In this document: piece after piece, positions 8,724-25,182 of the stretch
Position numbering within the stretch: position 1 is the stretch's first letter
Layout: each line of letters begins with the position of its first letter
DNA from: Planctomycetota bacterium
GTDB lineage: Bacteria; Planctomycetota; UBA8108; SXIK01
DNA: 64,000 nucleotides
Assembly (NCBI GenBank): GCA_965223845.1
Contig: CBDCXR010000004.1
Span: 1 to 64,000, forward strand
Direction: 5' to 3'
Notes under the pieces: generated by a model
Databases searched by the model: none
What the model was told of the DNA's origin: nothing
What the model saw: the letters and a program-made list of their open reading frames with translations, nothing else
Position numbers and translations under genes: made by a program

Positions 8724-9146
8724 ATGTTCCTTGGCGAGTTCGAGCACACGACCGACCCGAAGCACCGGGTCGTCTTACCTTCGCCGCTGCGCCGCGAGGT
8801 GGAGCTCCAGCGGGGCTTCGTCCTGGTGCCGGAGGAGAAGAACGAGTGCCTCGAGTTGCATCCGTTCGAGGCGTGGGAGAGGCGAGTTGCCGACCTCGAG
8901 AAGGACCACGACGTCCACCGGGACCGGACGGCGAGGGCGTACTTCCGTCGCTACATCGGACGCGCACAGCGCGGCCAGTGCGACAACCAAGGTCGCTTCC
9001 TTCTACCGGAGGTGCTGCGCCGGGCCGTCGGCATCGATCGCGATGTTCGCTTCATCGGCATGGTGCACTTCATCGAGATCTGGTCCGCGGAACGGTGGCG
9101 CGACGGGGAGTCGGTTCGCGACGCCGAGGGGGCGGAGGGTGATTGA
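8724..9146 (+). CDS. mraZ: Transcriptional regulator MraZ
   Basis: MFLGEFEHTTDPKHRVVLPS; CDNQGRFLLPEVLR; IEIWS; first gene of the dcw cluster. Confidence 0.93.
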   Translation: MFLGEFEHTTDPKHRVVLPSPLRREVELQRGFVLVPEEKNECLELHPFEAWERRVADLEKDHDVHRDRTARAYFRRYIGRAQRGQCDNQGRFLLPEVLRRAVGIDRDVRFIGMVHFIEIWSAERWRDGESVRDAEGAEGD

Positions 9147-9230
9147 GTGGGTGTGGATGGAATTCCCTGGGCGGAGCGCGTGACGGTGTTCGGTTGTCCG
9201 CTGTCGAGAGACGCTGGAAGGAGAGAAAGA

Positions 9231-9485
9231 ATGGATCAGAGAACGGATTCCCCCGTGGCGGCCGCGCTTTCGAGTCTGGAAGCAGAGGCTGCGTCATCCC
9301 GTTCGTCGCGACTCGAGCTCACCGGCGTCAACGTCGACGAAGCCCACCGCGCGCTGTTCGCTACACGGCTCGAGACGCTCCGCGAGCTCCATCCCGAACT
9401 GGCGGCGCGGGTCGAGTTGCACCCCGCGCTCCGGCGCAAGGTCCCGGCGGCGACCGGCGCCGCGGGCTGGATCTTCGGTGATTGA
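9231..9485 (+). CDS. Small hypothetical protein between mraZ and rsmH
   Basis: 84 aa; GGAAGGAG RBS; genome-like codon usage; no motif recognised. Confidence 0.55.
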   Translation: MDQRTDSPVAAALSSLEAEAASSRSSRLELTGVNVDEAHRALFATRLETLRELHPELAARVELHPALRRKVPAATGAAGWIFGD

Positions 9486-9597
9486 ATGCGCGCGGCGAAC
9501 GCGGACGAATCGTTTCGCGGACCGCCGCTAAAGGGAAGGAAGCGAAGAGTGAATCTCCGGGACGCCCGTCGCGCTGAGACCCAGGAAGAGAATCGTC

Positions 9598-10515
9598 GTG
9601 AACGAGCCGGATTCGCCCTCGCCGTCCGCGCCGCACGTGCCTGTGATGGCGACGCCGCTGCTCGACGTGCTTCGACCGGCGCGCGGCGAGATCTTCGTCG
9701 ACGCGACCGTGGGAGCCGGGGGGCATGCGGCGCTCCTCCTCGAGCGACTTGGCTCGGAGGGTCTCCTCATCGGGATCGATCGCGATCCGGATGCGCTCGC
9801 GCTCGCCTCCGCTTCGCTCGAAGCGACGGGGAATCCGTTCCGTCTCGTTCGCGGACGCTTTTCGGAGCTCCGTCGTCATCTCCGCGACCTCGGTCCCCCC
9901 GTTGAAAGTGGAGTCGACGGTGTCCTACTCGATCTCGGAGTCTCGTCGATGCAGCTCGATCGTCCCGAGCGCGGGTTCAGTTTCCTCCGCGACGGTCCGC
10001 TCGACATGCGCATGGACGCCGAGACGGGCGAACGCGCCGCCGAGCTGCTCCGCACCATCGAGCTCGCTGATCTCACGCGGCTTCTGCGCGAACTGGGCGA
10101 AGAACCGCGCGCCGCGCGCGTTGCTCGCGCGATCGTCGCCGCGCGACAGGCCGGCGACCTCGAGTCGACGGGCGACTTGCGCGACGCCGTCGAGTCGGTC
10201 GTCTCGCGACAACCGGGCAAGGTGCATCCCGCAACGAGAACGTTTCAGGCAATTCGGATCGCCGTCAACCGCGAGCTCGACGAGCTCCGTGCCGCGCTCG
10301 CGGATCTCGATCGGGTGGTTCGACCGGGTGGACGCGTCGCCGTCCTCTCCTACCATTCGCTCGAGGATCGCATCGTCAAACGCTGGCTCGCCGGAGCCGA
10401 GAGCGACGGGTTCTTCATCGCGCAGCGTCCGCTCATCCGTCGTCCGGACGACGAGGAAATCTCGCGCAATCCTCGCGCCCGGAGCGCTCGTCTCCGCGCG
10501 GCGGTGCGAGCGTGA
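9598..10515 (+). CDS. rsmH: 16S rRNA m4C1402 methyltransferase RsmH
   Basis: HVPVM, DATVGAGGH, DLGVSSMQLD..RGFSF, HPATRTFQAIRIAVN, NPRARSARLR. Confidence 0.97.
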   Translation: MNEPDSPSPSAPHVPVMATPLLDVLRPARGEIFVDATVGAGGHAALLLERLGSEGLLIGIDRDPDALALASASLEATGNPFRLVRGRFSELRRHLRDLGPPVESGVDGVLLDLGVSSMQLDRPERGFSFLRDGPLDMRMDAETGERAAELLRTIELADLTRLLRELGEEPRAARVARAIVAARQAGDLESTGDLRDAVESVVSRQPGKVHPATRTFQAIRIAVNRELDELRAALADLDRVVRPGGRVAVLSYHSLEDRIVKRWLAGAESDGFFIAQRPLIRRPDDEEISRNPRARSARLRAAVRA

Positions 10516-10536
10516 GCGCCGATCTCGAGGAGGCGA

Positions 10537-10938
10537 GTGATGGCCCCGGGAGTGCGTGCGTTTCTCCTCAGCGTGGTGCTGCTCACGATCGGGCTCGCCG
10601 CCGTTTTCGTCGAGGTCGAAACTCTCCGGAGCGGGGAGCGCATCCGCCAGATTCTTCTCGAGACGGACGAGCGCCGCGAGCGGGTGAGACGCGCCGAAAC
10701 TGCCGTTCGCCGCGCACTGAGCCCCGACCTCCTCGTGCGGGAAGTCGAGGAGGAGTTCGAGGCGCGCGAGGCTGAAGAGCGCGGGCGTTTGCGCGCGCTC
10801 GAGACTTCGACCGACGAGGGTGGAGACGCAGTAGGCGATCCGCCTCGCGAGGGGCGTCCCGTCGCATCGCTCGGAGACGAGCGTCCGGCCCCGGGGCGAG
10901 GGGATCGAAGGCGGCGGCGGTGGAAACTCCAGCCGTGA
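10537..10938 (+). CDS. ftsL: FtsL-like bitopic coiled-coil protein
   Basis: N-terminal TM helix plus coiled coil; position between rsmH and ftsI. Confidence 0.6.
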   Translation: MMAPGVRAFLLSVVLLTIGLAAVFVEVETLRSGERIRQILLETDERRERVRRAETAVRRALSPDLLVREVEEEFEAREAEERGRLRALETSTDEGGDAVGDPPREGRPVASLGDERPAPGRGDRRRRRWKLQP

Positions 10939-10979
10939 CGCGGCGCGAACTAGGCTAGGACCAAGGACGGAGAGGAGCG

Positions 10980-12851
10980 ATGGGACGGAGACGACGGCGA
11001 GCGGACGGGCCGAAACAAGATCCGTCCGCGGTCGAGCGAGTACGGCGATCCCTTCGAATTCGACTCGTCACGGCGGCGGTGTGCGCATCGATCGGGTTTG
11101 CGGTCCTCGCCGGACGGCTCTACTCGATTCAGGTCGGAGACCACGAGCGGTTTCGCGCCTCCGCCGAGAACATGCACACGCGCCGCGAGCCCGTCCTCGC
11201 GCACCGCGGAGATATTCTGACGCGCGACGGAGTGATCCTCGCGCGGAACGAGCTCGTTTTCGACATCGCGATCGATCCCTCGCGCATCGCGCCGGAGCGA
11301 ATCGGTCCCGTCGTCGACGCGATCTGCGAGACACTCGGAACGAGCGCCGAGTACCGGCGCGAGCGCGCGGTCCTCGCCCGACAGTACGCCGAGCGAGGAA
11401 GACAGTTTCTCTCGCTCGGTCGATCGGTCGCGCGAGACGTGGCCCGGCGCGTTCGTCCCGCCGTGATCGAGGCGGTGAAGAGCGCGAACCCGCTCGCGGT
11501 GATCGTCGAGCGCCGGAGCGAGCGGAGGTACCCGCGCGGAGCGTTTGCGGCGTCCGTCGTCGGGGTGAGCGACCGCGAGGAGCGCGGAGTCGAGGGGCTC
11601 GAGCGGGCGTTCGACGCCTACCTCGCGCCGAAGGACGGGACGCGCGAGGTCCAAGTGGGGGCTCACCCGGCGAGTGCGCGCGCGTTTCGCCCCGGAAATG
11701 GCTACGTGGCAGCCGTCCCCGGTTACGACGTCGTGACGACGATCGACAGTCGCCTCCAGTCCATCGTCGAGACGCAGCTCGAGTGGGGGGTGAAGCGCAT
11801 GCGCGCGCAGGGCGGCGTCTGCATCGTCCTCGACTGTCGACACGGCGACATTCTCGCGCTCGCGAACTACCCGACCTACGATCCGAACCAATACGAAAAG
11901 TACCCCGAGCGCGAACGCGCCAAGCGGCGGCGGAACCGCGCCGTCGAGGATGCTTACGAGCCGGGTTCGGTCGTGAAGGGATTCATCCTCGCGAAGGTCC
12001 TCGAGCACGGCGTCGCCGCGCGCCACGAGCGCATTCGGTCGATTCTCCCCGCCGGCGTGCGCTGGGACGGAGGGAAGCGCGCCGTGTTCGGCCGCCGCCC
12101 GGTTACCGACGTGCACGCGCATCCCGGCATGACGGTCGAGCAGGCGCTCTACCAGTCGTCGAACATCGGCATGTCGGCGCTCGGCATTCGCCTCGGTCGC
12201 GCTCGGATGGTGGAGATGCTCGACGCCTTCGGCTTCGGTCGACCGACCGGCGTGCTCCTCCCCGCGGAGGTGAACGGTCGCTACCAACCGCCCGAGGAGT
12301 GGAAGCCGTTCCAGTCGATCGTCTCGCTCTCGTTCGGATACGCGGTGATGGTCTCGCCCGTTCAGCTCGCGTCGGCATTCGCGGCGCTCGTTAACGGCGG
12401 GAAGCTTCTTCGGCCGCGCATCGTCGATCGCGTCGAGCGCGATGGCATCGTCCACCGGTTTCCCCGCGGGGAAACCGTCGGGCGGCCGATCTCCGAGGAC
12501 GTTTCGCGTCAAATGCGCGAGATCCTCGCGAAGGTCATCGAGGACGACGAAGGGACCGCGAAGTGGATCCGCGTCGAGGGGTTTCGCTTCGGTGGGAAGA
12601 CCGGCACGGCGGACATCGCGACCAATGGTCGGTACACGAAGACGAACTATCTTGCGTCCTTCGAGGCGTTCGCGCCGGTCGACGATCCAGAGGTCGTCGT
12701 CCTCTGCATGATCGAGAAGCCGCGGGATTCGATCTACGGCGGGATGGTGAGCGGTCCGGTGGTCGTCCAGATCCTGCGGCACATGTACCGTGTCGACGAG
12801 GTGTGTCGACTCGAAAAAATGGGTGCGGCGGGGCCGTGGATCGGTTGGTGA
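10980..12851 (+). CDS. ftsI: Class B penicillin-binding protein (FtsI/PBP3)
   Basis: RGDILTRDG, RRYPRG, GLE, YEPGSVVK (SxxK), SSN, KTGT. Confidence 0.93.
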   Translation: MGRRRRRADGPKQDPSAVERVRRSLRIRLVTAAVCASIGFAVLAGRLYSIQVGDHERFRASAENMHTRREPVLAHRGDILTRDGVILARNELVFDIAIDPSRIAPERIGPVVDAICETLGTSAEYRRERAVLARQYAERGRQFLSLGRSVARDVARRVRPAVIEAVKSANPLAVIVERRSERRYPRGAFAASVVGVSDREERGVEGLERAFDAYLAPKDGTREVQVGAHPASARAFRPGNGYVAAVPGYDVVTTIDSRLQSIVETQLEWGVKRMRAQGGVCIVLDCRHGDILALANYPTYDPNQYEKYPERERAKRRRNRAVEDAYEPGSVVKGFILAKVLEHGVAARHERIRSILPAGVRWDGGKRAVFGRRPVTDVHAHPGMTVEQALYQSSNIGMSALGIRLGRARMVEMLDAFGFGRPTGVLLPAEVNGRYQPPEEWKPFQSIVSLSFGYAVMVSPVQLASAFAALVNGGKLLRPRIVDRVERDGIVHRFPRGETVGRPISEDVSRQMREILAKVIEDDEGTAKWIRVEGFRFGGKTGTADIATNGRYTKTNYLASFEAFAPVDDPEVVVLCMIEKPRDSIYGGMVSGPVVVQILRHMYRVDEVCRLEKMGAAGPWIGW

Positions 12852-12970: not shown

Positions 12971-14479
12971 GTGGAGAGAATCAGCATGCGTCTCAAGGAG
13001 CTGGGAGACGGCTGCCTGCGCGTGCCGTCGGACCTCCAGGACGTGGAGGTGACGGGGCTGACGTGTGATTCGCGCTGCGTCAAGCCGGGCTGGGCGTTCG
13101 TCGCCGTCGACGGGGAGTGCGTCGACGGACATCGATTCGTGCGTCGCGCGGTTTCCGCTGGAGCTAGCATCGTCGTCGGGGAACGGCCGCGGCAGCGGCG
13201 CGCGAACGGAGTGGGCGATGCGGTCGATCGGACGATCCGCTCGCTGCGCGTGCCGTATCTTCGCGTCGCCGACTCGCGCGCGGCGCTGGGTTACCTGAGC
13301 TCGAACTTCTACGGGCGAGCCCACGAGAAAGTGCGCGTCGTCGGCGTGACGGGCACGAAAGGAAAGACGACGACGGCGTGGCTGCTCGACGCGATCTTTC
13401 GCGCGTCCGGGGTCGTGTCGGGGCTTCTCGGCACGGTCCACAATCGAATCGGGGGCAGTGTCCGATCGGCACGGAATACGACCCCGTCGAGCCTCGAGCT
13501 GCATCGCTACCTCTACGAGCTCGTCCGCTCGGGCGGAACTCACGCCGTCATGGAGGTCTCGTCGCACGGCATCGCACAGCGACGGACCGCGGGACTCGAG
13601 TTCGACGCTGCCGTGTTTACGAACATCGCGCCCGAGCACCTCGATTACCACGGGACGTTCGAAGACTATCTCGCGACGAAGGTGAAGCTCTTCGAGACTC
13701 TCCGCCCGGACGCCTACGCGATCCTGCCCCGCGATGAGGACGCATCGGCGCGGATTCAGCGTGCGACCCCCGCCCGCGTCGTTTGGTTCAGCGATCGTCC
13801 CGACGACGGCGTGGAGGACATCCGGAGCGGTATCGGCGGCACCAGCTTTCTCTGGAAGGGACGCCGCGTCGAAACTCCGCTCGTCGGAGCGCACAACCTC
13901 CTCAACCTTCTCGGAGCGATGACTGCGGCCGAGTGTATCGGGATCGCGCCCGACACCATCGCCCAAGCGGCGCGAGCCGCTGCCGCGCCTCCGGGGCGAC
14001 TCGAGGAGATCCCCTCGGGGCGCGGCTTCCGCGTCTTCGTCGATTACGCGCACACCGACGGTTCCCTCGAGGCCGTCCTCCGCGCGCTCCGACCGCTCAC
14101 GCCCGGCCGGATCATCACGGTCTTCGGTTGCGGCGGCGACCGCGATCGCGGCAAGCGCCCGCGGATGGGGCAAGTCGCCGAGAAAGGCTCGGACCACCTC
14201 GTCGTCACCTCGGACAACCCGCGGTCGGAGGATCCCGAAGCGATCCTCGACGACATTCGCGCCGGCCTCGAGCGGCCCGACGAGACGGTGTTCGAACCGG
14301 ATCGCCGCGCCGCGATCGCGCTCGGCATCCGCATGGCGCGTCCGCACGACGCCGTTCTCCTCGCTGGCAAGGGGCACGAAACCTACCAGGAGATTCAGGG
14401 CGAGCGCACTCACTTCGATGACCGCGAGGTGGCGCGGGAGTTTCTCGCGGAGCTGAGTGTGGGGATCGAAACGGTATGA
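12971..14479 (+). CDS. murE: UDP-MurNAc-tripeptide synthetase MurE (meso-DAP type)
   Basis: GVTGTKGKTTT, MEVSSHG, EHLDYH, VDYAHT, DNPR, GKGHETYQ. Confidence 0.96.
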   Translation: MERISMRLKELGDGCLRVPSDLQDVEVTGLTCDSRCVKPGWAFVAVDGECVDGHRFVRRAVSAGASIVVGERPRQRRANGVGDAVDRTIRSLRVPYLRVADSRAALGYLSSNFYGRAHEKVRVVGVTGTKGKTTTAWLLDAIFRASGVVSGLLGTVHNRIGGSVRSARNTTPSSLELHRYLYELVRSGGTHAVMEVSSHGIAQRRTAGLEFDAAVFTNIAPEHLDYHGTFEDYLATKVKLFETLRPDAYAILPRDEDASARIQRATPARVVWFSDRPDDGVEDIRSGIGGTSFLWKGRRVETPLVGAHNLLNLLGAMTAAECIGIAPDTIAQAARAAAAPPGRLEEIPSGRGFRVFVDYAHTDGSLEAVLRALRPLTPGRIITVFGCGGDRDRGKRPRMGQVAEKGSDHLVVTSDNPRSEDPEAILDDIRAGLERPDETVFEPDRRAAIALGIRMARPHDAVLLAGKGHETYQEIQGERTHFDDREVAREFLAELSVGIETV

Positions 14480-16107
14480 AGCCACTCGGCCTGCGCGCCC
14501 TGCTTCCCATCGTCGGCGGCCGGTGGACCGGCTCGGATCCGATTCCCGAAGGCCTCGTCTCCGGGTTCTCCACCGACACTCGCACGCTCTCCGGGCGCCC
14601 ACTCTTCTTCGCGCTCGAAGGCGAGCAACGCGACGGGCACGAGTTCGTCCGCGCGGCGCACGCGCGGGGAGCGATCGCATCGGTCGTCGCCGCGCATCGC
14701 GTGCGGGATTTGCCGGCGCAGGCCGGTCCGTACGTCGTCGTCGACGATCCACTCAACGCCCTGGAGCGATGGGCGAAGTGGAATCGCGATCAGATCGATC
14801 CGATCGTGGTCGGAGTGACGGGAAGCGTAGGAAAAACGAGTGTAAAGGAGTTCCTCGGAACGCTGCTGAGCGATCGGTTCAGCGTCGCGATCGCTCCGAA
14901 GAGCTACAACAACCGGCTCGGGGTCGCGACGACGCTTCTCTCGGTCGCGCCGGAAACGGAGATTCTCGTCGCGGAGCTCGGTACGAGCGGACCGGGGGAG
15001 CTCGCGTATCTCTCACGGTTGGTCCGCCCCGACCACCTCGTCATCACCGAGATCGCGCCCGCTCATCTCGACGGACTGAGAGATCTCGACGGAGTCGTTC
15101 GGGCGAAGGCGGAGATCTTCGACGGCCAAAATCCCGGAGGCTGGACGTTTGTTCGCCGCGGGATCTACGGCTTCGACACGTTCCGCGCGCGCACGCGCGG
15201 GCCGATGTGCCTCTTCGGTCGTCACGACGACCTCGAATGGGACGGAGAGCGCGCGCACGGCGCGGAGTCGGCCGGGGTCGTCGTCGATGCGAGCTACACT
15301 GTGAGCGACTGCGTCCGCGTCGGGCTCGGCGACCCGCGCTCGATCAACGGTGCGCGCGCCTACGGGTATCATTTTTCCGTCGACGATCGAGAGAACTTTC
15401 TCCTCCCCGTCCCCGGGGCGCACAACGTGACGAACGCACTCGCCGCGATGTGCGTCGCACACAAGCTCGGAATGGACTGGTCGGAGCTGCGTGCGGCGCT
15501 CTGCCTCTGTCGTCTCCCGCCCCTGCGCTTTCAGGTCGTCGAAGTCCGCGGCGTCCTTTTCCTCAACGACTCCTACAACGCCAATCCCCGCAGCATGCGG
15601 GCCGCGATCGAGGAGTGGCGCGATCTCGCCGCAGCGATCCCGAGTCCGAATCGCCTGAAGAGTCGGACGGATCTCGCCGGGTCGTCCCGCCGCCGATCGA
15701 GATCGAGGCAGCCCGGCCCGGTCGCGGTGCTCGGCGACATGTGCGAACTCGGGGCGCGCTCGCGAGTGCTTCACGAGGAGATCGGGGAGCTCCTCATCGA
15801 AAGCGGCGCGCGCTTGATCGTGACCGTGGGTACGGACAGCCGCTGGATCGCGGAGTCGTACCGGCAGCTCGGCGGCAGAGGGATCACGCGACACTTCGCC
15901 GACGCGCGGGGCGCGGCGGACTTCCTCAAGGAGAACGTTCGCGCCGGCGATCACGTCCTCATCAAGGGCTCGCGCGCGATCGGACTCGAGCGAGTGTTCG
16001 ACGCGACGATGCGGTGGGTGAAGCACCGCGGCGCGGACGCGAAGGGCGTCCGTCGCGCGGCTTCCGCCGCCGCGCCCGCGGGCGAGTCCGGGGAGAGCAG
16101 GCCATGA
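14476..16107 (+). CDS. murF: UDP-MurNAc-pentapeptide synthetase MurF
   Basis: GVTGSVGKTSVKE, SYNNRLG, NDSYNANP, LGDMCELG, IKGSR; ATGA overlap with murE. Confidence 0.95.
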   Translation: MKPLGLRALLPIVGGRWTGSDPIPEGLVSGFSTDTRTLSGRPLFFALEGEQRDGHEFVRAAHARGAIASVVAAHRVRDLPAQAGPYVVVDDPLNALERWAKWNRDQIDPIVVGVTGSVGKTSVKEFLGTLLSDRFSVAIAPKSYNNRLGVATTLLSVAPETEILVAELGTSGPGELAYLSRLVRPDHLVITEIAPAHLDGLRDLDGVVRAKAEIFDGQNPGGWTFVRRGIYGFDTFRARTRGPMCLFGRHDDLEWDGERAHGAESAGVVVDASYTVSDCVRVGLGDPRSINGARAYGYHFSVDDRENFLLPVPGAHNVTNALAAMCVAHKLGMDWSELRAALCLCRLPPLRFQVVEVRGVLFLNDSYNANPRSMRAAIEEWRDLAAAIPSPNRLKSRTDLAGSSRRRSRSRQPGPVAVLGDMCELGARSRVLHEEIGELLIESGARLIVTVGTDSRWIAESYRQLGGRGITRHFADARGAADFLKENVRAGDHVLIKGSRAIGLERVFDATMRWVKHRGADAKGVRRAASAAAPAGESGESRP

Positions 16108-17207
16108 TTGCCATCCTCCTCGAGCGCTGGTGGGAGGGTACGCTCGAACCGCTCGTTCGCGCCGCGGGAGCACTCGTCTGCGCTCTCGCGATCGCGCTCG
16201 CGACCGGTCCGCTCCTCATCCGTCGTCTGCGCGAAGGTCGCGTTCACGACCGAGTGCAAAAAGGGGATTCGGCGCGACTCGACGAGCTCAGTGCGCACAA
16301 AGAGAAGACCCCGACGCTCGGGGGGCTCTTCTTCTTCGGCGCGGTCGTCGCATCGATCGTTCTTTGGTGTCGACTCGATACGCTCGCGCCGTGGCTCGCC
16401 GTCGGCGTGATCGTCGCGCTCGGAGGTCTCGGTCTCGTCGACGATCTCGCGAAGCTCCGTTCGGGGCGAAAGGGCATTTCCGCGCGGGCGAAGCTCGCCG
16501 GTCAAATCGCGGTTTCGCTCACCGCGGCGTCGATTCTCTACGCCTTCGGGCCAGCGGTGCGCTTCGGCGCGGAGGGCGCGGCGGCGGATGTCGGCGGGAC
16601 AGTCCTCTTCGTACCGGTCGTCCACCACGTGATCGTGCTCGGATGGGTCTGGATCCTCCTCGCGACGTTTGTCACGACCGGCGCCTCGAACGCGGTCAAT
16701 CTGACCGACGGGCTCGATGGACTCGCGGTCGGCTGCAGCCTCATCGTCGCCGGAGTGCTCGCTCTCGCCGCCTTCGCGGGTGGTGAGGCAGCGACCGCCG
16801 GGCGACTCGCCGTGCCGCACGTCGCGGGTGCGGGAGAACTCGGCGTCGTGCTCGCGGCGGTCATCGGCGGTGGCTTCGGCTTCCTCTGGTTCAACTGCCA
16901 TCCGGCCCGCGTGTTCATGGGCGACACCGGGGCGCTTCCGCTCGGCGGGCTCCTCGGGTTCTCGGCCGTGTTTCTCCGGCAGGAGGTCCTTCTCGCCGTC
17001 GCCGGGGGAGTGCTCGTCGTCGAGGCGCTCTCCGTCATTCTGCAGGTCGCCTCGTTCAAGCTCACGGGTCGGCGCATCTTCAAAATCGCGCCGCTCCATC
17101 ACCACTTTCAGTTCGGTGGGCTGCGCGAGACGCAGATCACCGTCCGGTTCTGGCTCACCGGCGCAGTTCTCGCCGTCGGTTCGCTCGTGATGTTGAGGCT
17201 GGGGTGA
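16104..17207 (+). CDS. mraY: Phospho-N-acetylmuramoyl-pentapeptide transferase MraY
   Basis: TPTLGG, DD, NAVNLTDGLDGL, FMGDTG, APLHHHF; C-terminal part of ORF 14457..17207. Confidence 0.96.
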   Translation: MIAILLERWWEGTLEPLVRAAGALVCALAIALATGPLLIRRLREGRVHDRVQKGDSARLDELSAHKEKTPTLGGLFFFGAVVASIVLWCRLDTLAPWLAVGVIVALGGLGLVDDLAKLRSGRKGISARAKLAGQIAVSLTAASILYAFGPAVRFGAEGAAADVGGTVLFVPVVHHVIVLGWVWILLATFVTTGASNAVNLTDGLDGLAVGCSLIVAGVLALAAFAGGEAATAGRLAVPHVAGAGELGVVLAAVIGGGFGFLWFNCHPARVFMGDTGALPLGGLLGFSAVFLRQEVLLAVAGGVLVVEALSVILQVASFKLTGRRIFKIAPLHHHFQFGGLRETQITVRFWLTGAVLAVGSLVMLRLG

Positions 17208-17252
17208 TGACGGCGATCGCGATGTCGCCGCCGAAGGGCGGGAGAGAACACC

Positions 17253-18437
17253 ATGGCTGACGCGAGTCTGAGCGAGAGAGTTGCGAGCGCACCGTCGCGC
17301 TGGTTCGCGCGGGCGTTCGGCAGCGAGATGTCGCGCACGCTCGTCATCACCTCGGTGTCGCTGCTCGTCTGCGTCGGTACGGTGATGGTGTTCAGCGCGG
17401 CGGCGTTCCACCGCGCGGCCGCCGGCGATCCGTTCTACTTCTTGCGGAAGCAGCTCGCGTGGGTCGCGATCGCGAGCCTCGTCGGCATCTTCTTCTATCA
17501 GATCGACTACCGGCTCCTCCGGCGCGTCTACTGGCCGGCGCTCGTCGCCGCGACACTGCTCCTCGCGCTCGTACTCCTCCCGCAGGTCGGCACGCTCGTC
17601 AATCAGTCGCGACGGTGGATTCGACTCGGTGGAGGACTTCAGTTTCAGCCATCGGAGCTAGCGAAACTCGTCGTCGTCCTCTTCGTCGCCGGCTACCTCG
17701 CGAACGATCCCCGACGCCCGCGGCAGTTCTTTCGCGGCTTCTGCGCGGTCAGCTTCTGCATCCTCCCCGCGTTTATCTTCATTCTTCTCGAGCCCGATTT
17801 CGGCACTGCGGTCTTCGTCCTCGGACTCGCGATGCTTCTTCTCCTCCTCGGTGGCGTTCCGATTCTCCACATGCTGACGAGCGTCGTCGTGTTTCTCCCG
17901 TTCATCGCGCTCGCGGCGTATTCTAGGTGGGAGCAGGTGACGCGTCGGGTGTTCGCGTTTCTCGAGCCGGAGCAGGAGTACCAGATGCTTCACTCGCTCA
18001 CCGCGCTCGGAACCGGGGGCTGGACCGGCGTCGGACTCGGCGAGAGCGGGCAGCGACTTCAGTTCCTACCGGAAGCACACACGGATTTCATCCTGGCGAT
18101 CATCGGCGAAGAGACGGGGCTCGTCGGCTGCACGGCGATCCTTCTTCTCTTCGTCTGCTTCATCTGGGGCGGCGTCGGTATCGTTTGGCGCGCGCGCGAT
18201 TACTTCGGCTTTCTTCTCGGGGCGGGAATCATCTTCGGGATCGGCGTTCAGGCGTTCCTGAACGTCGCCGTCGTGACGGCCAGCGCGCCGACGAAGGGGA
18301 TCGCACTACCGTTCGTGACCTTCGGGGGCTCGGGTCTCGTTATCGCGATGGCCCAAATCGGTCTCCTTCTCTCGATCGAGCGAGTCTGGCGGGAAGAGGC
18401 ACGATCGGACGGCTCGGCTGGAGCGGAGGCGGGATGA
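17253..18437 (+). CDS. ftsW: SEDS peptidoglycan glycosyltransferase FtsW
   Basis: RRWI..QPSELAK, EPDFGT, LPEAHTDFI..IIGEE, PTKGIALPFVTFGGS. Confidence 0.94.
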   Translation: MADASLSERVASAPSRWFARAFGSEMSRTLVITSVSLLVCVGTVMVFSAAAFHRAAAGDPFYFLRKQLAWVAIASLVGIFFYQIDYRLLRRVYWPALVAATLLLALVLLPQVGTLVNQSRRWIRLGGGLQFQPSELAKLVVVLFVAGYLANDPRRPRQFFRGFCAVSFCILPAFIFILLEPDFGTAVFVLGLAMLLLLLGGVPILHMLTSVVVFLPFIALAAYSRWEQVTRRVFAFLEPEQEYQMLHSLTALGTGGWTGVGLGESGQRLQFLPEAHTDFILAIIGEETGLVGCTAILLLFVCFIWGGVGIVWRARDYFGFLLGAGIIFGIGVQAFLNVAVVTASAPTKGIALPFVTFGGSGLVIAMAQIGLLLSIERVWREEARSDGSAGAEAG

Positions 18438-19642
18438 CGCACGCGTCGACCTCGACACGAACGCACCGAGACGATCCGAGCGCCCGGGACAGCGCCGCGA
18501 CTGCCCCCGCGCGGGCCGAAGCGGCGTCCGCACGCGAGCGTCGGCAAGCGCTCCGGTCGGTCGCGATGTTCGGCGGCGGGAGCGGAGGCCATCTGTTTCC
18601 GGGGATCGCCGTCGCGGAACGCCTCGTTTCGCGGTTTCCGGGATGCCGGGTCGTCTTCTACTCGAGTGGCCGTGACATCGAGCGGCGAATCCTCGGCGCC
18701 TCTCCGTTCGAAGCGCGCGCGCTCGCGATCCGTCCGCCCGGCCGAAGTCCGGCGGGCTGGGTGCGCTTTGCGCGGGCCGCATCCCGCGAGAGGCGGCGCA
18801 TCGAATCCGACCTCGTCGGGGACTGCGACGTCGCTTTCGGGCTCGGTGGCTACGCGTCCGTCCCCGGCATCCTCGCCGCGCGGCGCCTCGGCTGTCCGGT
18901 CGTCCTTCTCGAGCAGAACCGCGTCGCGGGTCGCGTGAACCGGCTTTTCGCCCGCCGCGTTGCGGCGATCGCCGCCCCGTGGAACGCGCGGGAGATCGCC
19001 TGCGGCGGCACGGTCGCGGTGACCGGAAACCCGGTTCGCCGCGACGTACTCGCGGCGGCCGAGTGTCGCCGCGAACGCGAGGCTGCGGCGGGGGAGGCGT
19101 CGGGCTCGAGACGCCGCGATCGAACCGTCGTGGTGGTCGGCGGGAGTCAGGGGGCGAGAGCGCTCAATCGACTCGTCATCGCCGCGCTCGAGGAGCTTTC
19201 GGACGTCGCGCGCGACTGGCGCTTCGTTCACATCGCCGGTGAAGCGGACCGGAACGCCGTGGCGCGCGCGTACGCCGAGGCAGGAATCCGCGCGGAGGTC
19301 GTCTCTTTCGCCTTCGATCTGCCGCAGCGCCTCGCCGAGGCCGATCTCGTCGTGTCGCGCGCCGGCGGGACGACCCTCGCGGAGCTCGCGGTGATGGGAG
19401 TCCCCTCGATCCTCGTCCCGTATCCTCACCATCGCGACCGCCACCAAGTGCGGAACGCCGAAGCGTTTGCGGAGGCCGGTGCCGCGCTCGCCGTCGCGGA
19501 GGGGGAATCGAGCGCGTTTACGAAGGCCCTGACTTCGACCCTCGCGCGCGCCGATCGCCGGGCCGTGTTGGCCGATCGAGCGCGTGCTCTCGGCCGTGCG
19601 GACGCGGCGGATGCCGTCATCGATCTGGTGCTGGAGCTCTGA
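18434..19642 (+). CDS. murG: Lipid II GlcNAc transferase MurG
   Basis: GGGSGGHLFPG, GGYAS, EQN, TGNPVR, GGSQGA, SRAGGTT, HQVRNA. Confidence 0.95.
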   Translation: MTHASTSTRTHRDDPSARDSAATAPARAEAASARERRQALRSVAMFGGGSGGHLFPGIAVAERLVSRFPGCRVVFYSSGRDIERRILGASPFEARALAIRPPGRSPAGWVRFARAASRERRRIESDLVGDCDVAFGLGGYASVPGILAARRLGCPVVLLEQNRVAGRVNRLFARRVAAIAAPWNAREIACGGTVAVTGNPVRRDVLAAAECRREREAAAGEASGSRRRDRTVVVVGGSQGARALNRLVIAALEELSDVARDWRFVHIAGEADRNAVARAYAEAGIRAEVVSFAFDLPQRLAEADLVVSRAGGTTLAELAVMGVPSILVPYPHHRDRHQVRNAEAFAEAGAALAVAEGESSAFTKALTSTLARADRRAVLADRARALGRADAADAVIDLVLEL

Positions 19643-19647
19643 AGCAG

Positions 19648-20505
19648 ATGTCGACCGGATTTCGAGTGTTTCTCCTCCTCGTCCTCGCCGCGGCGTCGGT
19701 CTGGGTCTACCGCTGGCGGAGCGATGAGCTCGAACGATTCTTTCTCTTCCCGCAGGGATACTCGGCGACTCAGGAGTTCGCGAACCCGGCGAGCTCGAGC
19801 GCGTCGATGCGCATCGCGCCGCCTCGCTTCGACGCTTCGCGGCGGGAGGCGAGCGTTGCCGAACTCGTCGAGACGTTCGGCCCACCTCCCAATTGGGACC
19901 GCGAAGGAACGTTCCAGCTCGATCCGGAACGGATCGCCGGACGCCTCGCCGAAGGTGGGGAGGGGGAAGCGATCCCCAACTCGGAACGGGCGCCTTGGGA
20001 TGCCTTTGAGGACGATCCCGATCTCTCGCTTCAGCCGTTCGAGGAGGAGCCGATCGACCTCGAGCCCCTCCCGAGCGAGGAGGAGATCATCTACACCGTT
20101 CGGGACGGCGAACGACTGTGGACGATCGCCGAGCGCCTCCTCGGTCACGGCTCGCGCTTCCCGCAGATTCTCGCGCTCAACCCGGGAGTGATCGACGACC
20201 CGAAGACGGTCGTTCCCGGCACGAAATTGCGCATTCGCGTGCCGCTCGAAAAAAAAACGCGGGACGAGGTTCAGCCGGAGCCCGATCCGTCCGATAGAGC
20301 CGTTGAGGGGGGTTCCCAGCCATCGCTGGTCGAGTCACCCCGCACCCACAGGGTTGGTTCTCACGAAACGCTGATCGGCATCGCGAGACGCTACTATCCG
20401 GGTGACGCTGATGGAGTGAGACGCCTTTTCGAGGCGAATCGAGATCAGCTCTCGTCTCCGGACTTGGTTCCACGCGGAGCCGTGCTCGTCATTCCGCCAC
20501 GCTAA
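19648..20505 (+). CDS. Membrane-anchored protein with two LysM domains
   Basis: N-terminal TM; YTVRDGERLWTIAERLLG..ILALN and HRVGSHETLIGIARRYY..LFEANRDQL..GAVLVIP. Confidence 0.88.
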   Translation: MSTGFRVFLLLVLAAASVWVYRWRSDELERFFLFPQGYSATQEFANPASSSASMRIAPPRFDASRREASVAELVETFGPPPNWDREGTFQLDPERIAGRLAEGGEGEAIPNSERAPWDAFEDDPDLSLQPFEEEPIDLEPLPSEEEIIYTVRDGERLWTIAERLLGHGSRFPQILALNPGVIDDPKTVVPGTKLRIRVPLEKKTRDEVQPEPDPSDRAVEGGSQPSLVESPRTHRVGSHETLIGIARRYYPGDADGVRRLFEANRDQLSSPDLVPRGAVLVIPPR

Positions 20506-20626: not shown

Positions 20627-22126
20627 GTGGAGACGGAAGGCCGCGTCCTAAGAGACGCCCGTCGTCGTGCGAGTGCGGAGGCGACGCGTGAAGCGAGCCA
20701 CGCCAAGGCGAAGGGGAGCGCACCCGGCGCCGCGGCGTCGGAGCGAGTGCACGTCGTCGGCATCGCCGGTTCGGGGCTTCGTGGGATGGCGCAGCTCCTC
20801 CATGCGCGCGGGGCGAAGATCAGCGGCTCCGAGCAGGCGGAGAGCCCCGTGCTCGAGCGGCTGCGGCGGTGCGATATCGATTGTCGCATCGGCCACAAGG
20901 AGACGAACATCACTCCGGGCGTGAACCTCGTCGTCGTGTCCGCGGCGGTCGACGCGAGCAACCCGGAGGTGCGCGCCGCACGCGATCGGAGCATCCCGGT
21001 GCTCAAGTACGCCGAGTGCCTCGGGAAGCTGATGACGGAGCGCGTCGGCATCGCGATCGCGGGGACGCACGGAAAGACGACGACTTCGTCCATGACGGCC
21101 CAGATCCTCCTCGAGGCGGGCGTCGATCCCTCGTTTCTCGTCGGTGGCGATTGCCCATCGCTCGGCGGAAGCGCCCGCTGGGGGGCCGGACCGCACTTTG
21201 TCGCCGAGGCGTGCGAGTTCGATCGGAGCTTTCTCAACCTCCGCCCGAAGCTCGCCGTCATTACGAACGTCGACGAAGACCACCTCGACTACTTCCGCGG
21301 CCTGGCGGAGATCCAGCGCGCGTTCGGCGACTTCGTTCGTCTCCTGCCGGCGGACGGACTTCTCGTCCTCGATCGCGACGATCCCAACTCGACGTATCTG
21401 CGCGAGCTCACGCGGTCGGCGGTGAGCTCGTTCAGCCTCGAGCCCGGGAACGCGGAATGGTGGGCCGAGGAGATCCGGCAGGACGGACTCGGAACGCGAT
21501 TCGTCGCGTGCCATCGGGGCGGCGAACGGCAGCGCGTTCACCTTCATGTCCCCGGGCTGCACAACGTCCGGAACGCCCTCGCGGCGACGGCTCTCTGTCG
21601 CGCGCTCGGCATCGACCTCAACTCGATCTCGCGCGGTCTCGGCGCGTTTCGCGGCGTCCGGCGTCGCTTCGAGGTGCTCGCCGAAGAACCGGTGATGGTC
21701 ATCGACGACTACGCCCACCATCCAACCGAGGTGGACGCCGTCGTCTCGGCGGCCCGCGATCGGCTGGGCGGGCGGCGCCTCATCGCCGTGTTCCAGCCGC
21801 ACCAGCATTCCCGCCTGAAGTATTTGTCCGATCGATTCGCCACGTCGCTCGCCGGATTCGACGAGGTTCTCGTGCTCGACGTTTTTCGCTCGCGCGATTC
21901 GGACGAGGATGCGCGCACGGTGCAGTCGGACCGCGTCGTCGAACGTCTCGGAGAGCTCGGCGTCAAGGCGTGGCTCACGCGCTCGTTCGCCGACGCGAGA
22001 CAGCGTCTCGAGGTGACCGCGGGCGCGGGCGACGTCGCGTTTTTTCTCGGCGCCGGGAACGTGACCGAGCTGGCCCGCGAGTACGCGAGAACGCAGCGCG
22101 CGCGTTGCGCGACGCGGGTGAGCTGA
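20627..22126 (+). CDS. murC: UDP-N-acetylmuramate--L-alanine ligase MurC
   Basis: GIAGSG, IAGTHGKTTT, EACEFDRSF, DDYAHHPTE, FQPH. Confidence 0.96.
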   Translation: METEGRVLRDARRRASAEATREASHAKAKGSAPGAAASERVHVVGIAGSGLRGMAQLLHARGAKISGSEQAESPVLERLRRCDIDCRIGHKETNITPGVNLVVVSAAVDASNPEVRAARDRSIPVLKYAECLGKLMTERVGIAIAGTHGKTTTSSMTAQILLEAGVDPSFLVGGDCPSLGGSARWGAGPHFVAEACEFDRSFLNLRPKLAVITNVDEDHLDYFRGLAEIQRAFGDFVRLLPADGLLVLDRDDPNSTYLRELTRSAVSSFSLEPGNAEWWAEEIRQDGLGTRFVACHRGGERQRVHLHVPGLHNVRNALAATALCRALGIDLNSISRGLGAFRGVRRRFEVLAEEPVMVIDDYAHHPTEVDAVVSAARDRLGGRRLIAVFQPHQHSRLKYLSDRFATSLAGFDEVLVLDVFRSRDSDEDARTVQSDRVVERLGELGVKAWLTRSFADARQRLEVTAGAGDVAFFLGAGNVTELAREYARTQRARCATRVS

Positions 22127-22240
22127 ACGGACAAGCTTCGCCGCGCGAAGATTCGAGGGCGAAACGGTACACTTCAACTGGGGCGGCTTCGAGAGGTGAG
22201 AGCCGTCGGCTCGGACGAGTCGCGGCGGCGGTGAACTACG

Positions 22241-23155
22241 ATGCGCGCGACGATCCAAGGCTCGACGGACGATCGAAGTCTCGCCCCAGAAATTCGGGCG
22301 GAACCGCGGCCGAGGGCGACGGCGCTCGCCCCGCGCACGACCTTTCGCATCGGCGGCTCGGCGCGCTGCTACTACGCCCCCGCGACGGTCGCCGAGTTCC
22401 GTGCCGTTTTGGTGCGGGTCGCCCGCGAGTCGAGCGCCCCGTTTTTTCTCGGCGGGGGAGCGAACGTCCTCTTTCCGGACGGTGAGTTCGACCGACCGGT
22501 GATTTCGACGGAAAAGCTCCGCGGAGTCGAGGTCCGCGGACGGACGATCCGCGCGGAAGCGGGAGTTCGACTGAATACTCTCATCAAAACGGCGATCCAG
22601 GCCGGGCTCTCCGGCCTCGAATACTTCGTGGGAATTCCCGGGACGTGCGGCGGCGGCGTGGCAATGAACGCCGGCGGCCGGTACGGCTCGCTCGGTGAGC
22701 GTGTCACGGAGCTTGGTCTCATGCCGCTCGGTGGCGGTCCCGTCGAAGTCGTGCGCGGCGACGACATCGTTTGGAACTACCGCTCGAGCGAGCTCGGCGG
22801 TCGCGCCGTCGCGTGGGCGACGTTCGAGCTCGCACCGGGGAGCTCGAGCGAACTTCGGCGCGAGGCCGGCGCGTTCATGCGCGAGAAGGCGGGGACTCAG
22901 CCCGTGCACGCGCTGAGCGCCGGCTGCGTGTTCCGGAATCCACCCGGTCGAAGCGCGGGCGAGCTTCTCGACCGCGCCGGATTGAAAGGGCGCGGCATCG
23001 GCGGAGCTCAGTTCTCCGACGTGCACGCGAACTTCATCATCAATGTGAACGGCGATGCGACCGCTCGCGATGTCCGCGCGCTGGTCGACGCGGCGCGTCG
23101 CGAGGTCGACTCGCAGTTCGGAGTCCGGCTCGAGACGGAGATGGTCCTCGCGTAG
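22241..23155 (+). CDS. murB: UDP-N-acetylenolpyruvoylglucosamine reductase MurB
   Basis: TTFRIGG, GGGAN, GIPGTCGG..MNAG, YRSS, SAGCVFRNP, HANFIIN, LETE. Confidence 0.95.
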   Translation: MRATIQGSTDDRSLAPEIRAEPRPRATALAPRTTFRIGGSARCYYAPATVAEFRAVLVRVARESSAPFFLGGGANVLFPDGEFDRPVISTEKLRGVEVRGRTIRAEAGVRLNTLIKTAIQAGLSGLEYFVGIPGTCGGGVAMNAGGRYGSLGERVTELGLMPLGGGPVEVVRGDDIVWNYRSSELGGRAVAWATFELAPGSSSELRREAGAFMREKAGTQPVHALSAGCVFRNPPGRSAGELLDRAGLKGRGIGGAQFSDVHANFIINVNGDATARDVRALVDAARREVDSQFGVRLETEMVLA

Positions 23156-23282
23156 ATGGGCAGCGAGTCGCGCGGGGCGGAGCGACGTCGCACGAGGACG
23201 AACGACAAGCAGGGCCGGGAGCGGGTGGCGGATCGCGGTTTGTTCCGCGACCCGCACGGCGACGGTGCCCGAGGAAAACGCA

Positions 23283-24329
23283 GTGTCACGGAAGAAACGG
23301 CAGACGACGAAGCAGCGAGCGGCCGCGCCGCGAACGCATCCCGCGAAGACCGCAATTCGATGCGGGGCTCTCGCCGCAGCGCTCGCGGCGACGATTTGGG
23401 CCTCGCTCCGCGTCCGCGATTACGTTCAGCGAGACGAGAGGTACTGGATCGGCGACTGGCCCGTCGAGCTCGGAGAGTTGCCCGAGTGGGTGACGCCGGA
23501 GATCCGCGCGGAGATCGAGAGCGTCCGACTGCCCGACCTTTCCGTCGAGATCGAGCTCGCGGCAAACGAGACCGCCGGCGAGCCGGCGGGAGACGAGGGA
23601 GCGGACGCCGCGGGGGCAGCGGAGTCGAACGCGGACCGGACGCCGGAGCGAATCCGCGGCACGCTCTTCGAGCGGGGCGTCCTCGATCGCCTCCGGGACG
23701 CCCTCCTGGCGTCCCCGTGGGTGAGCGACGTGACGGGGATCTCCGCCGTCTACCCTTCGGCTTCCCGCGACGGCGCCCTCCTCGTCGCACTCGAGCTGCG
23801 GCGACCGATCGCCATCGTCGAGTACGAAGGTCTTCATTACCTCACCGACCGCCGCGGCGCGCGCCTCGGTGAGCCGTATTCGTACGCGCCGGTCGAGTGG
23901 TTTCGGATCCCGGTGATCACGGGTATCGAGGAACGCGTCGAAGTCCCGGCCATCGGTGACGCGTGGGCATCGCGGGAAATCGACAACGGTCTCGCGATCG
24001 CGCGCGTCCTCGATGACGAGGGGATCGCGCGGGACTACCCCGGCGAGCTGATCGAGAGCATAGACGTCTCGAATCTCGGCGGACGACGCCGACCGATGGA
24101 GAGCGAAGTCGTGCTCGCGTGGGAAGGGCGCCGGCTGACGTGGGGCCGTGCGCCGCTCAGCTCAGCTCCGCGCGTGGTCGGGGCGTCGACCGTCGTCGAG
24201 CATCTTCGCCGCGTCCTCGGAAATCCGGACGAGTTTGCCGATTGCGTGGAGATCCACCTTCACCGCCGGGTGATGACGGGCATCCGCGGCGCCTCGACGC
24301 GAACCTTCCGTGGTGCCGGCCCGCGCTGA
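23283..24329 (+). CDS. ftsQ: Divergent FtsQ/DivIB-like protein
   Basis: GTG start after GAGG; basic N-terminus, TM helix, POTRA-like LLASPWV..YP..L..RRPIA; position after murB. Confidence 0.6.
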   Translation: MSRKKRQTTKQRAAAPRTHPAKTAIRCGALAAALAATIWASLRVRDYVQRDERYWIGDWPVELGELPEWVTPEIRAEIESVRLPDLSVEIELAANETAGEPAGDEGADAAGAAESNADRTPERIRGTLFERGVLDRLRDALLASPWVSDVTGISAVYPSASRDGALLVALELRRPIAIVEYEGLHYLTDRRGARLGEPYSYAPVEWFRIPVITGIEERVEVPAIGDAWASREIDNGLAIARVLDDEGIARDYPGELIESIDVSNLGGRRRPMESEVVLAWEGRRLTWGRAPLSSAPRVVGASTVVEHLRRVLGNPDEFADCVEIHLHRRVMTGIRGASTRTFRGAGPR

Positions 24330-24330
24330 C

Positions 24331-25182
24331 ATGAGCCGGGAGTCGGGCGTGGATGCGAGGAACGACGCGAGCGGTCCCGCGCTCGTGACCCTCCTCACGG
24401 ACTTCGGCACGGCCGACGGGTACGTCGCGGCGATGAAGGGCGTGCTCTACTCGGCGGCGCCGGAGCTTCGGGTCGTCGATCTCTCGCACGAAGTCGCGCC
24501 GCAGGACGTTCTCCACGCGGGCCTCGTCTGGCGAGCGTCTCTCAACTATTTTCCCGCGGGCACCGTGCACGTCGCCGTGGTCGACCCGGGCGTGGGCACG
24601 AAACGCCGCATCCTCGCCGTCCAGCTCGACTCGGGGGGAGTGCTTCTCGCGCCGGACAACGGACTCATTCCGTACGCGGTCGATCGAGTCGCGATGCTGC
24701 GGATGTACGCAGTCGAGAACACGCTGTATTTCTCGCGTACGGTGAGCGCGACGTTTCACGGACGCGATATCTTCGCCCCGGTCGCGGCGCGACTCGCGAG
24801 CGGACTCGACCCGTCTGCTCTCGGCCCCTCGGTGAGTGAGTGCGTCGGGAGCGGATTGCCTCCGGTCCGCGTCCGATCGATCGACGGAGAGCAGATCGAA
24901 GAGCGAGGCGAGGTGATCCTCGTCGACCGCTTCGGGAACGCGATCACCAATCTGTCGCCGCGTCCTCGAGCTCGATTCGCTCGGCTGGACGCTGGCGCTC
25001 ACACGTTCGACCGACTCTGCCGGACCTACGGAGAAGTCTCGACCGGCGACCCGCTCGTTCTGACGAGCTCGTTCGGCTTCCTCGAGGTGGCCGTGCGCGA
25101 GCGGAGCGCGGCGCGTCAGCTCGAGCTGCACCGCGGAGATCCGGTCGCCGTGCTCTGGCGGAACGAGGACGCGGAAGCCTGA
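24331..25182 (+). CDS. SAM hydroxide adenosyltransferase / chlorinase-fluorinase family (DUF62)
   Basis: TLLTDFG..DGYVAAMKG, VVDPGVG, APDNG, TFHGRDIFAP, VDRFGN. Confidence 0.92.
   Translation: MSRESGVDARNDASGPALVTLLTDFGTADGYVAAMKGVLYSAAPELRVVDLSHEVAPQDVLHAGLVWRASLNYFPAGTVHVAVVDPGVGTKRRILAVQLDSGGVLLAPDNGLIPYAVDRVAMLRMYAVENTLYFSRTVSATFHGRDIFAPVAARLASGLDPSALGPSVSECVGSGLPPVRVRSIDGEQIEERGEVILVDRFGNAITNLSPRPRARFARLDAGAHTFDRLCRTYGEVSTGDPLVLTSSFGFLEVAVRERSAARQLELHRGDPVAVLWRNEDAEA

Follow-up and report, generated by a model that had tools for sequence, protein, structure and literature searches.

An unfragmented division and cell wall operon lacking ftsA and ftsZ in a Planctomycetota genome

Gene content and order of the dcw locus

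The first 64,000 nucleotides of contig CBDCXR010000004.1 from a Planctomycetota bacterium (assembly GCA_965223845.1), hereafter the window, represent 64 kb of a 7,869,199-bp contig and carry a division and cell wall (dcw) gene cluster whose content, control region and possible role in division are described here. The G+C content of the window is about 66% and six-frame lists of open reading frames (ORFs) were full of spurious frames; genes were chosen by their third-position G+C (GC3) and then checked against Pfam and NCBIfam. From 8556 to 25182 all genes lie on the + strand in one tightly packed, operon-like unit, in which ten genes could be assigned with hidden Markov models (HMMs) of Pfam and NCBIfam; ftsQ and ftsL, identified by fold or by position, stand outside these ten. 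The ten genes stand in canonical order on a single strand and three ATGA overlaps join neighbors among them, an arrangement far beyond chance that confirms the near-complete dcw cluster in ancestral order that a first-pass annotation had described from the sequence. The interval proposed there, 8724..25182, begins at the mraZ ATG, and its last gene encodes an S-adenosylmethionine (SAM) hydrolase homolog and is not a dcw gene. The features of the locus are as follows:

8556..8583, + strand: sigma-70-like promoter, TTGACA-16 nt-TAGACT (10 of 12 consensus matches)
8593..8617, + strand: three direct AGTGG cores with a 10-bp period, MraZ-operator-like by sequence reading
8724..9146, + strand: mraZ (Pfam MraZ, 74.4 bits, in two stretches)
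9147..9485, + strand: 112-codon ORF without a family, in the mraZ-rsmH spacer
9598..10515, + strand: rsmH (mraW), 16S rRNA m4C1402 methyltransferase (Pfam Methyltransf_5, 298 bits; TIGR00006, 271.9 bits, cut-off 154.3)
10540..10938, + strand: probable ftsL, 132 aa, bitopic, between rsmH and ftsI (transmembrane residues 1-30)
10980..12851, + strand: ftsI, class B penicillin-binding protein (PBP; transpeptidase) (Pfam Transpeptidase, 218.5 bits; PBP_dimer, 54.7 bits)
12971..14479, + strand: murE, meso-diaminopimelate-adding type (NF001126, 496.7 bits, cut-off 373)
14476..16107, + strand: murF, 543 aa (TIGR01143, 342.7 bits, cut-off 288.6)
16104..17207, + strand: mraY (TIGR00445, 288.4 bits, cut-off 192)
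17253..18437, + strand: ftsW, glycosyltransferase of the shape, elongation, division and sporulation (SEDS) family (Pfam FTSW_RODA_SPOVE, 283.6 bits)
18434..19642, + strand: murG (two GT28 domains; TIGR01133, 233.6 bits, cut-off 250.25)
19648..20505, + strand: lineage-specific bitopic LysM protein, 285 codons (Pfam LysM, in two stretches)
20627..22126, + strand: murC, with no ddl fusion (TIGR01082, 431.7 bits, cut-off 335.1)
22241..23155, + strand: murB (Pfam MurB_C and FAD_binding_4; TIGR00179, 162.5 bits, cut-off 144.5)
23283..24329, + strand: divergent ftsQ, 348 aa, bitopic (AlphaFold2 model and Foldseek)
24310..25182, + strand: SAM hydroxide adenosyltransferase/(R)-SAM hydrolase homolog (Pfam SAM_HAT_N, 175.7 bits; SAM_HAT_C, 70.6 bits)

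Every gene present keeps its place in the canonical order ftsL-ftsI-murE-murF-mraY-murD-ftsW-murG-murC-murB/ddl-ftsQ, and murD and ddl are gone from the locus. Overlaps of 4 nt (ATGA) join murE to murF, murF to mraY, whose ATG at 16104 overlaps the murF stop, and ftsW to murG, whose ATG at 18434 overlaps the ftsW stop; the remaining gaps from rsmH onward measure 5-127 nt.

The 5′ end of the cluster, mraZ-rsmH, stands as in other dcw clusters, behind a candidate control region of MraZ type. The interval 8000-26000 contains a single promoter-like site (shuffle mean 0.6), the sigma-70-like one 140 nt 5′ of the mraZ ATG, and the AGTGG repeats begin within ten bases 3′ of it. AGTGG-N5-AGTGG-N5-AGTGG has a single occurrence in the window and none in 100 shuffles, a statistic that is indicative only, as the pattern was defined post hoc. 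The core site of MraZ in mollicutes is given in the available text of one study as (AAAGTGKN3)3 (PMC5282649), which the triple repeat resembles. These features point to transcription as a single operon and to control by MraZ. In the longer mraZ ORF, which is open from 8604, the family match sets in at residue 41, and translation probably starts at ATG 8724. The spacer between mraZ and rsmH is unusually long (9147-9597, 451 nt) and was negative in Rfam. It holds the 112-codon ORF, which has a GC3 of 0.73 compared with 0.80-0.84 in the neighboring genes, no match in Pfam or NCBIfam and no hydrophobic segment, and which is possibly no real gene.

Synthase and lipid II genes

The catalytic motifs that the first-pass annotation had called intact were all recovered, as S330-V-V-K, S393-S-N and K540-T-G in FtsI and D415-N-P-R in MurE. 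FtsI has a transmembrane segment at residues 25-50 and scored 332 bits with the SpoVD, 283 bits with the PBP2 and 197 bits with the FtsI subfamily model of NCBIfam, all under the respective cut-offs; the name FtsI given here to this class B PBP comes from the position of its gene. FtsW scored 334.6 bits with the ftsW model TIGR02614 (cut-off 337.5) versus 247.7 bits with the rodA model. A P-loop is present in MurE, MurF and MurC alike, and for each of the three the top NCBIfam score is that of its own family. The MurF sequence contains an insert at about residues 375-415 that is basic and serine-/arginine-rich or disordered and splits the Mur_ligase_C match; this insert makes the protein longer than usual, by roughly 80-90 residues.

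Divergent FtsQ and probable FtsL

The product of 23283..24329 has the architecture of FtsQ, with a basic N-terminal tail, one hydrophobic helix (transmembrane segment at residues 24-42, Kyte-Doolittle hydropathy 1.58) and approximately 300 further residues. No match was obtained in Pfam at E<=0.01 (including PF08478 POTRA_1 and PF03799 FtsQ_DivIB_C), in NCBIfam or in a PDB sequence profile search. Five relatives with 42-47% identity were recovered from a 5.8-billion-protein set, and the AlphaFold2 model built from the alignment of these five (predicted local distance difference test, pLDDT, 76.4; predicted TM-score, pTM, 0.66) was compared with the PDB by Foldseek. All eight matches at E<=0.001 were FtsQ chains (8hhf_Q, 6h9o, 5z2w, 2vh2, 2vh1), followed by DivIB and by the FtsQ chains of FtsWIQBL and FtsWIQLB complexes. 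Language-model neighbors of the protein in the Atlas were Planctomycetota clusters, some of them with FtsQ_DivIB_C (13% of members) or POTRA_1 (10%). By its modeled fold, which fits a bitopic protein with POTRA and beta domains in the periplasm as in FtsQ/DivIB, this ORF is a divergent FtsQ, with support that is at the level of the fold and not of close similarity. Three of the five relatives lie on contigs identical in size to contigs that carry FtsW relatives (190,311, 104,297 and 3,955 bp), and the other two on contigs of 1.6 and 2.2 kb. An insert of about 40 residues (87-124), acidic and rich in alanine, separates the first periplasmic elements from the beta-rich core; it is predicted to be disordered and is missing from all five relatives.

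The small ORF between rsmH and ftsI encodes a protein whose N-terminal transmembrane helix is followed by a short conserved region of helical character and then by a variable tail; neither Pfam nor NCBIfam recognized a family in it. At E<=1e-3 an exhaustive HMMER search recovered 28 relatives, which are 59-119 aa long and whose matches start at residue 1-2, and 27 of these were aligned with the window protein (one 59-aa fragment was left out); G18, V22, R50, P62, D63 and L65 are invariant in this alignment. In the Atlas, 12 of the 30 nearest clusters fall in a set of which 13% of members have PF04999 FtsL, and two more carry DivIC/FtsL.

A predicted complex of this protein with FtsI gave a median ipSAE (interaction prediction score from aligned errors) of 0.34 (runs 0.43, 0.01 and 0.34) compared with 0.00 for the best control, and was rated as weak support. 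Of 157 solved complexes 116 attained the ipSAE mark, as did 2 of 215 mismatched pairs, with just 18 of the 157 solved complexes at or below 0.60, together with both mismatches that passed. Contact agreement between runs was at least 33% and the pLDDT of the partner at least 64. As FtsL-FtsI complexes have already been solved, a pass in such a prediction may show likeness only. On its position, topology, relatives, Atlas neighbors and the weak complex score, ORF 10540..10938 is probably FtsL. The FtsWI-FtsQL septal synthase that the first-pass annotation took to be retained is represented by FtsW, FtsI, an FtsQ verified by fold and a probable FtsL, the last two invisible to HMMs.

Non-canonical genes within the operon

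The LysM gene separates murG from murC. In the model of its product a helix spans residues 3-33, residues 34-140 are disordered, and two LysM folds occupy residues 144-200 and 230-285 (pLDDT about 88-90). The N-terminal anchor is strongly conserved and the linker of about 110 residues is variable and acidic/proline-rich. All five full-length relatives (31-35% identity) lie on contigs identical in size to contigs of FtsW relatives (18,530, 10,896, 16,053, 18,245 and 10,050 bp), which suggests, indirectly and through these matching sizes, that the gene is a stable member of the dcw cluster in this lineage. Pfam and NCBIfam revealed no nucleotide-binding or polymer-forming domain in the protein, and Pfam no SPOR domain. 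A full-text literature search combining LysM, dcw and planctomycetes returned no report of a LysM insertion.

Septal peptidoglycan binders of the FtsN type have a short cytoplasmic tail, one transmembrane helix, a long disordered linker and one or more C-terminal binding domains. The layout of the LysM protein is presumably comparable to that of FtsN/SPOR proteins and of the LysM-bearing DipM of Caulobacter. The likeness is architectural only: LysM replaces SPOR, and the window encodes no FtsA for a cytoplasmic contact. That the protein serves as an FtsN-like, peptidoglycan-sensing part of a divisome free of FtsZ, FtsA and FtsB, recruited to the operon between murG and murC, is a speculative proposal that we hold to be rather unlikely. 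If true, the LysM domains would recognize nascent or denuded glycan, while FtsW-FtsI would be held or activated by the conserved anchor with its juxtamembrane segment, in concert with a minimal FtsQ-FtsL pair, giving a self-reinforcing, periplasm-driven focusing of septal synthesis without a cytoplasmic ring.

The SAM hydrolase homolog that follows ftsQ scored 214.2 bits with NF058624 (cut-off 350) and could start either at GTG 24310, overlapping ftsQ by 20 nt, or at ATG 24331, 1 nt past the ftsQ stop. Its family assignment points to a small-molecule enzyme, and we see no reason in it for a role in division.

Absent genes and taxonomic placement

No murD lies between mraY and ftsW, where the gap is 45 nt, and the NCBIfam murD model gave 109.7 bits with MurE, 54.2 with MurF and 100.8 with MurC, all below its cut-off of 211.95. 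Read in all six frames, the window contains 143 stop-to-stop frames that reach 200 codons, and a Pfam scan of all of them gave no match to tubulin/FtsZ, FtsA, MurD-specific or D-Ala-D-Ala ligase families. The absence of murD, ddl, ftsA and ftsZ noted in the first-pass annotation therefore holds for the locus and for these 64 kb. At the 3′ end, the place of ftsA-ftsZ in a dcw cluster, ftsQ is followed by the SAM hydrolase gene, a convergent ORF and groEL genes, and no frame of 24160-25930 gave a relevant Pfam match that would indicate an FtsZ remnant 3′ of ftsQ. An FtsB candidate, ORF 34804-35085, was rejected as it has no transmembrane helix.

Among the 120 FtsW matches listed, all six relatives with an organism name come from metagenome-assembled genomes (MAGs) of Planctomycetota/Planctomycetes, and the top identity other than to FtsW itself is 70-71%. 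The single organism-named relative of the LysM protein is likewise from a Planctomycetota MAG, and the Atlas taxa of the FtsQ and FtsL neighbors agree. The window also encodes a DUF1559 and N_methyl protein, a PF07638-type match to an extracytoplasmic function (ECF) sigma factor, and dockerin and DUF4388 proteins. Based on these named relatives, the Atlas taxa, the DUF1559/N_methyl protein and Sigma70_ECF PF07638, the window belongs to Planctomycetota. Within the phylum, Pirellulales, Isosphaerales and Gemmatales are disfavored because murC, murF, murG and ftsW, whose loss from these orders is described in the available text of one survey (PMC12283558), are present here. Phycisphaerae and the Saltatorellus clade were considered as well, with no decisive sign for either.

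A scan of genome contigs with FtsW gave 83 pattern stretches and one confirmed relative, at 36% identity, in a Firmicute MAG (locus L001). In this locus (1510-11086, Mageeibacillus MAG) ORF sizes alone indicate the order mraZ-rsmH-small ORF-PBP-murE-murF-mraY and then ftsW, apparently without murD at that place.

Other features of the window

The operon is closed by a convergent ORF:

25197..25601, - strand: 134-codon ORF (GC3 0.78; weak Pfam stretch only)

This ORF and another at 47889-48638 (+) both match, weakly, one and the same stretch of 25 residues in Pfam FumaraseC_C, which probably reflects a helical motif common to the two and no fumarase. A heat-shock block at 25862-31532 follows the convergent ORF, with two tandem groEL paralogs, dnaJ and grpE; groES and dnaK were not detected nearby by Pfam. 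The likely start of groEL1 is ATG 25862, in a frame that is open for 47 codons further 5′. About 150 nt 5′ of this start, at 25660-25713, lies an inverted repeat with perfectly matching 14-bp arms separated by 26 nt, unique in the window, which may be a heat-shock operator of this lineage; the consensus of the CIRCE (controlling inverted repeat of chaperone expression) heat-shock operator was not found.

Envelope-related genes occur at both ends of the window: a TPR and Amidase_2 (N-acetylmuramoyl-L-alanine amidase) protein at 2-1135 (-), cut by the window edge, and at 59863-60864 (+) and 60893-63999 (-) a PIG-L family deacetylase and an outer-membrane efflux protein beside an AcrB-type transporter. 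Three sigma-70/ECF-type factors are encoded in the 64 kb, at 4413-4742 (-), 41466-43337 (+) and 50209-50886 (-), one of them adjoined by a zf-HC2/FecR anti-sigma gene, together with a DUF4388-TPR-beta-propeller protein of 1084 aa and several surface proteins of dockerin or PKD type. Rfam and tRNA scans found no RNA genes in the window, and terminator-like sites were uninformative (10 observed, 10.6 expected).

Interpretation of the locus

The gene identities, their order, the motifs, the close spacing of the genes, the fold of FtsQ and a LysM gene that is conserved and linked lead us to favor, with a probability of roughly 0.75, a vertically inherited planctomycete dcw operon controlled by MraZ, which lacks ftsA and ftsZ through loss at the level of the phylum and whose missing murD and ddl lie elsewhere. 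A single MraZ-repressible transcript would begin at the promoter 5′ of mraZ and cover most steps toward lipid II (MurB, MurC, MurE, MurF, MraY and MurG), and would also include the LysM and SAM hydrolase genes, with murA, murD and ddl acting from other loci in the 7.9-Mb genome. The SEDS/class B PBP synthase FtsW-FtsI would be paired with the diverged bitopic FtsQ and the probable FtsL, which would regulate it without FtsB, FtsA or FtsZ, and the FtsWI-FtsQL assembly could make zonal or septal peptidoglycan without FtsZ. Placement of the synthase would be set by factors outside the operon, with FtsK and/or MreB as candidates by analogy with Chlamydia, and the LysM protein might tether or stimulate the synthase at new peptidoglycan in an FtsN-like manner. 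Loss of ftsZ (and ftsB) ahead of the diversification of the phylum would explain why neither ftsA nor ftsZ stands at the end of the operon.

The literature, cited throughout for the parts of the papers available to us, agrees with the first-pass annotation that characterized Planctomycetes lack FtsZ (PMC6952346, PMC12673574, PMC8871954) and that their dcw clusters are often fragmented, separated sub-clusters being described in PMC8871954 and PMC12673574. In these parts ftsZ is reported from no planctomycete genome, and Phycisphaerae and anammox bacteria are described as dividing in a fission-like manner without it (PMC6952346); the absence of ftsA/ftsZ is termed “well-known” (PMC8871954), and a survey of reference proteomes places FtsZ-free division already in the last planctomycetal common ancestor (PMC12283558). 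Reviews describe every planctomycete as lacking ftsZ and ftsB, with several classes retaining the remainder of the dcw set (PMC12283558, PMC12673574). In Planctopirus limnophila, murD and ddl lie at other genome loci and dcw genes are scattered (Table 1, PMC12283558).

Several observations weigh against this reading or against parts of it. The absence of ftsZ, ftsA, murD and ddl is established for the 64-kb window only. FtsI, FtsW, MurG, MraZ and the SAM hydrolase homolog all score under the curated NCBIfam equivalog cut-offs. For FtsQ, the Foldseek TM-scores are modest (0.25-0.35 by query, 0.36-0.52 by target) and the root-mean-square deviations are 7-10 Å. For FtsL, none of the 28 family members matched the FtsL/DivIC families of Pfam (PF04999, PF04977) at E<=10, a PDB profile search with the candidate gave nothing relevant, hhalign against the presumed FtsL of the Firmicute locus L001, itself assigned by position alone, returned a probability of 3.8%, and one of the three FtsL-FtsI complex runs scored 0.01. 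In addition, ftsI, ftsW and nearly all dcw genes of P. limnophila are described as deletable or non-essential (PMC6952346, PMC12283558), so the presence of such genes is no proof of a role in division.

In a different explanation, the cluster is a module for wall synthesis and cell shape only, its fts genes are dispensable as in P. limnophila and division, perhaps by budding, relies on unrelated machinery. Deletions of ftsI, ftsW and mreB in P. limnophila are reported as viable with division unchanged (PMC6952346, PMC12283558, PMC12673574). Here, however, the cluster is compact and translationally coupled with intact motifs, FtsQ and the probable FtsL, for which no roles outside the divisome are known, are kept, and orders in which the dcw genes became irrelevant are described as having later lost them (PMC12283558). 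We regard a wall-only module as unlikely, though it deserves serious consideration. A truncated cluster, whose ftsA and ftsZ were relocated along with murD and ddl and which serves an ordinary Z-ring, would fit the coverage of 64 kb out of 7,869,199 bp, the chromosomally separated dcw sub-clusters common in the phylum (PMC8871954, PMC12673574) and the near certainty that murD and ddl are elsewhere, which means that some genes did relocate. Against this, every taxonomic signal is that of Planctomycetota, the surveys report ftsZ from no planctomycete genome in their available text (PMC6952346, PMC12673574), and no FtsZ-dependent accessory gene was seen among the Pfam matches of the window; the chance of a relocated ftsZ thus appears very small.

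The first-pass annotation had also put forward the non-canonical genes of the operon as candidate FtsZ substitutes, so that one of three products, from the LysM gene, the SAM hydrolase gene or the 112-codon ORF, would organize the septal synthase. The LysM gene is conserved, linked to ftsW in all five relatives and placed inside the operon between murG and murC, and the non-FtsZ division ring of anammox planctomycetes, described from a peptidoglycan-containing compartment (PMC4432595), offers a precedent for a periplasmic organizer. None of the three products resembles a cytoplasmic scaffold, however. The LysM binder faces the periplasm and has essentially no cytoplasmic part, with its transmembrane helix starting at residue 3, about 110 residues disordered and no nucleotide-binding or polymer-forming domain; the SAM hydrolase belongs to a small-molecule enzyme family; and the 112-codon ORF is family-less with lower GC3. 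Moreover, the organizer tested in an FtsZ-less divisome of the Planctomycetes-Verrucomicrobia-Chlamydiae (PVC) group is FtsK, encoded outside such clusters, which is described as nucleating the chlamydial divisome (PMC11975371), and ftsK is reported as the only essential dcw gene of P. limnophila (PMC6952346, PMC12283558). The substitute proposal is therefore poorly supported and appears very improbable for any of the three genes.

The locus takes the question of FtsZ-free division in free-living bacteria no further, since reviews already describe planctomycetes that keep dcw genes but not ftsZ/ftsA/ftsB. As a new system, FtsZ-less dcw retention was anticipated by descriptions for Phycisphaerae, Planctomycetales, Ca. 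Brocadia and Ca. Uabimicrobia (PMC12283558, PMC12673574), and the lineage may already be covered by these two surveys. Three candidate components of the periplasmic part of a divisome without FtsZ come from the locus, namely an FtsQ invisible to HMMs, the FtsL candidate family and the LysM protein, and HMM-based surveys may under-call FtsQ and FtsL in Planctomycetota.

Comparison with known systems

The cluster is like the canonical dcw cluster of E. coli in its 5′ end, its internal order from murE to ftsQ, its single strand and its tight coupling. It differs in having no murD, ddl, ftsA or ftsZ, in the LysM gene between murG and murC and the SAM hydrolase gene after ftsQ, and in an FtsL and an FtsQ that have diverged past detection by HMMs.

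Compared with Chlamydia, as far as described in the accessible part of PMC4643143, the gene arrangement is different: there the genes form two separated clusters with the ftsQ region inverted, and localization and two-hybrid data are available, whereas the window is known from sequence and models. Both represent PVC lineages without FtsZ, and their FtsL and FtsQ proteins are alike in several respects. Chlamydial FtsL (Ct271) is also small (95 aa versus 132 aa here), has an N-terminal transmembrane helix and is encoded directly 5′ of ftsI, and chlamydial FtsQ (Ct764), whose POTRA sequence is poorly conserved, is likewise recognized through structure alone (PMC4643143).

A further likeness in gene content is to the FtsZ-less Planctomycetota, in which, according to the available portions of the surveys, mur genes, mraY, ftsW, ftsI and ftsQ are kept without ftsZ/ftsA/ftsB (PMC12283558, PMC12673574). 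Those papers describe erosion and fragmentation of the cluster, whereas 12 genes stand here in one operon of ancestral order. The value of the locus lies in this clean example of an unfragmented, translationally coupled planctomycetal dcw operon with an apparent MraZ-type control region.

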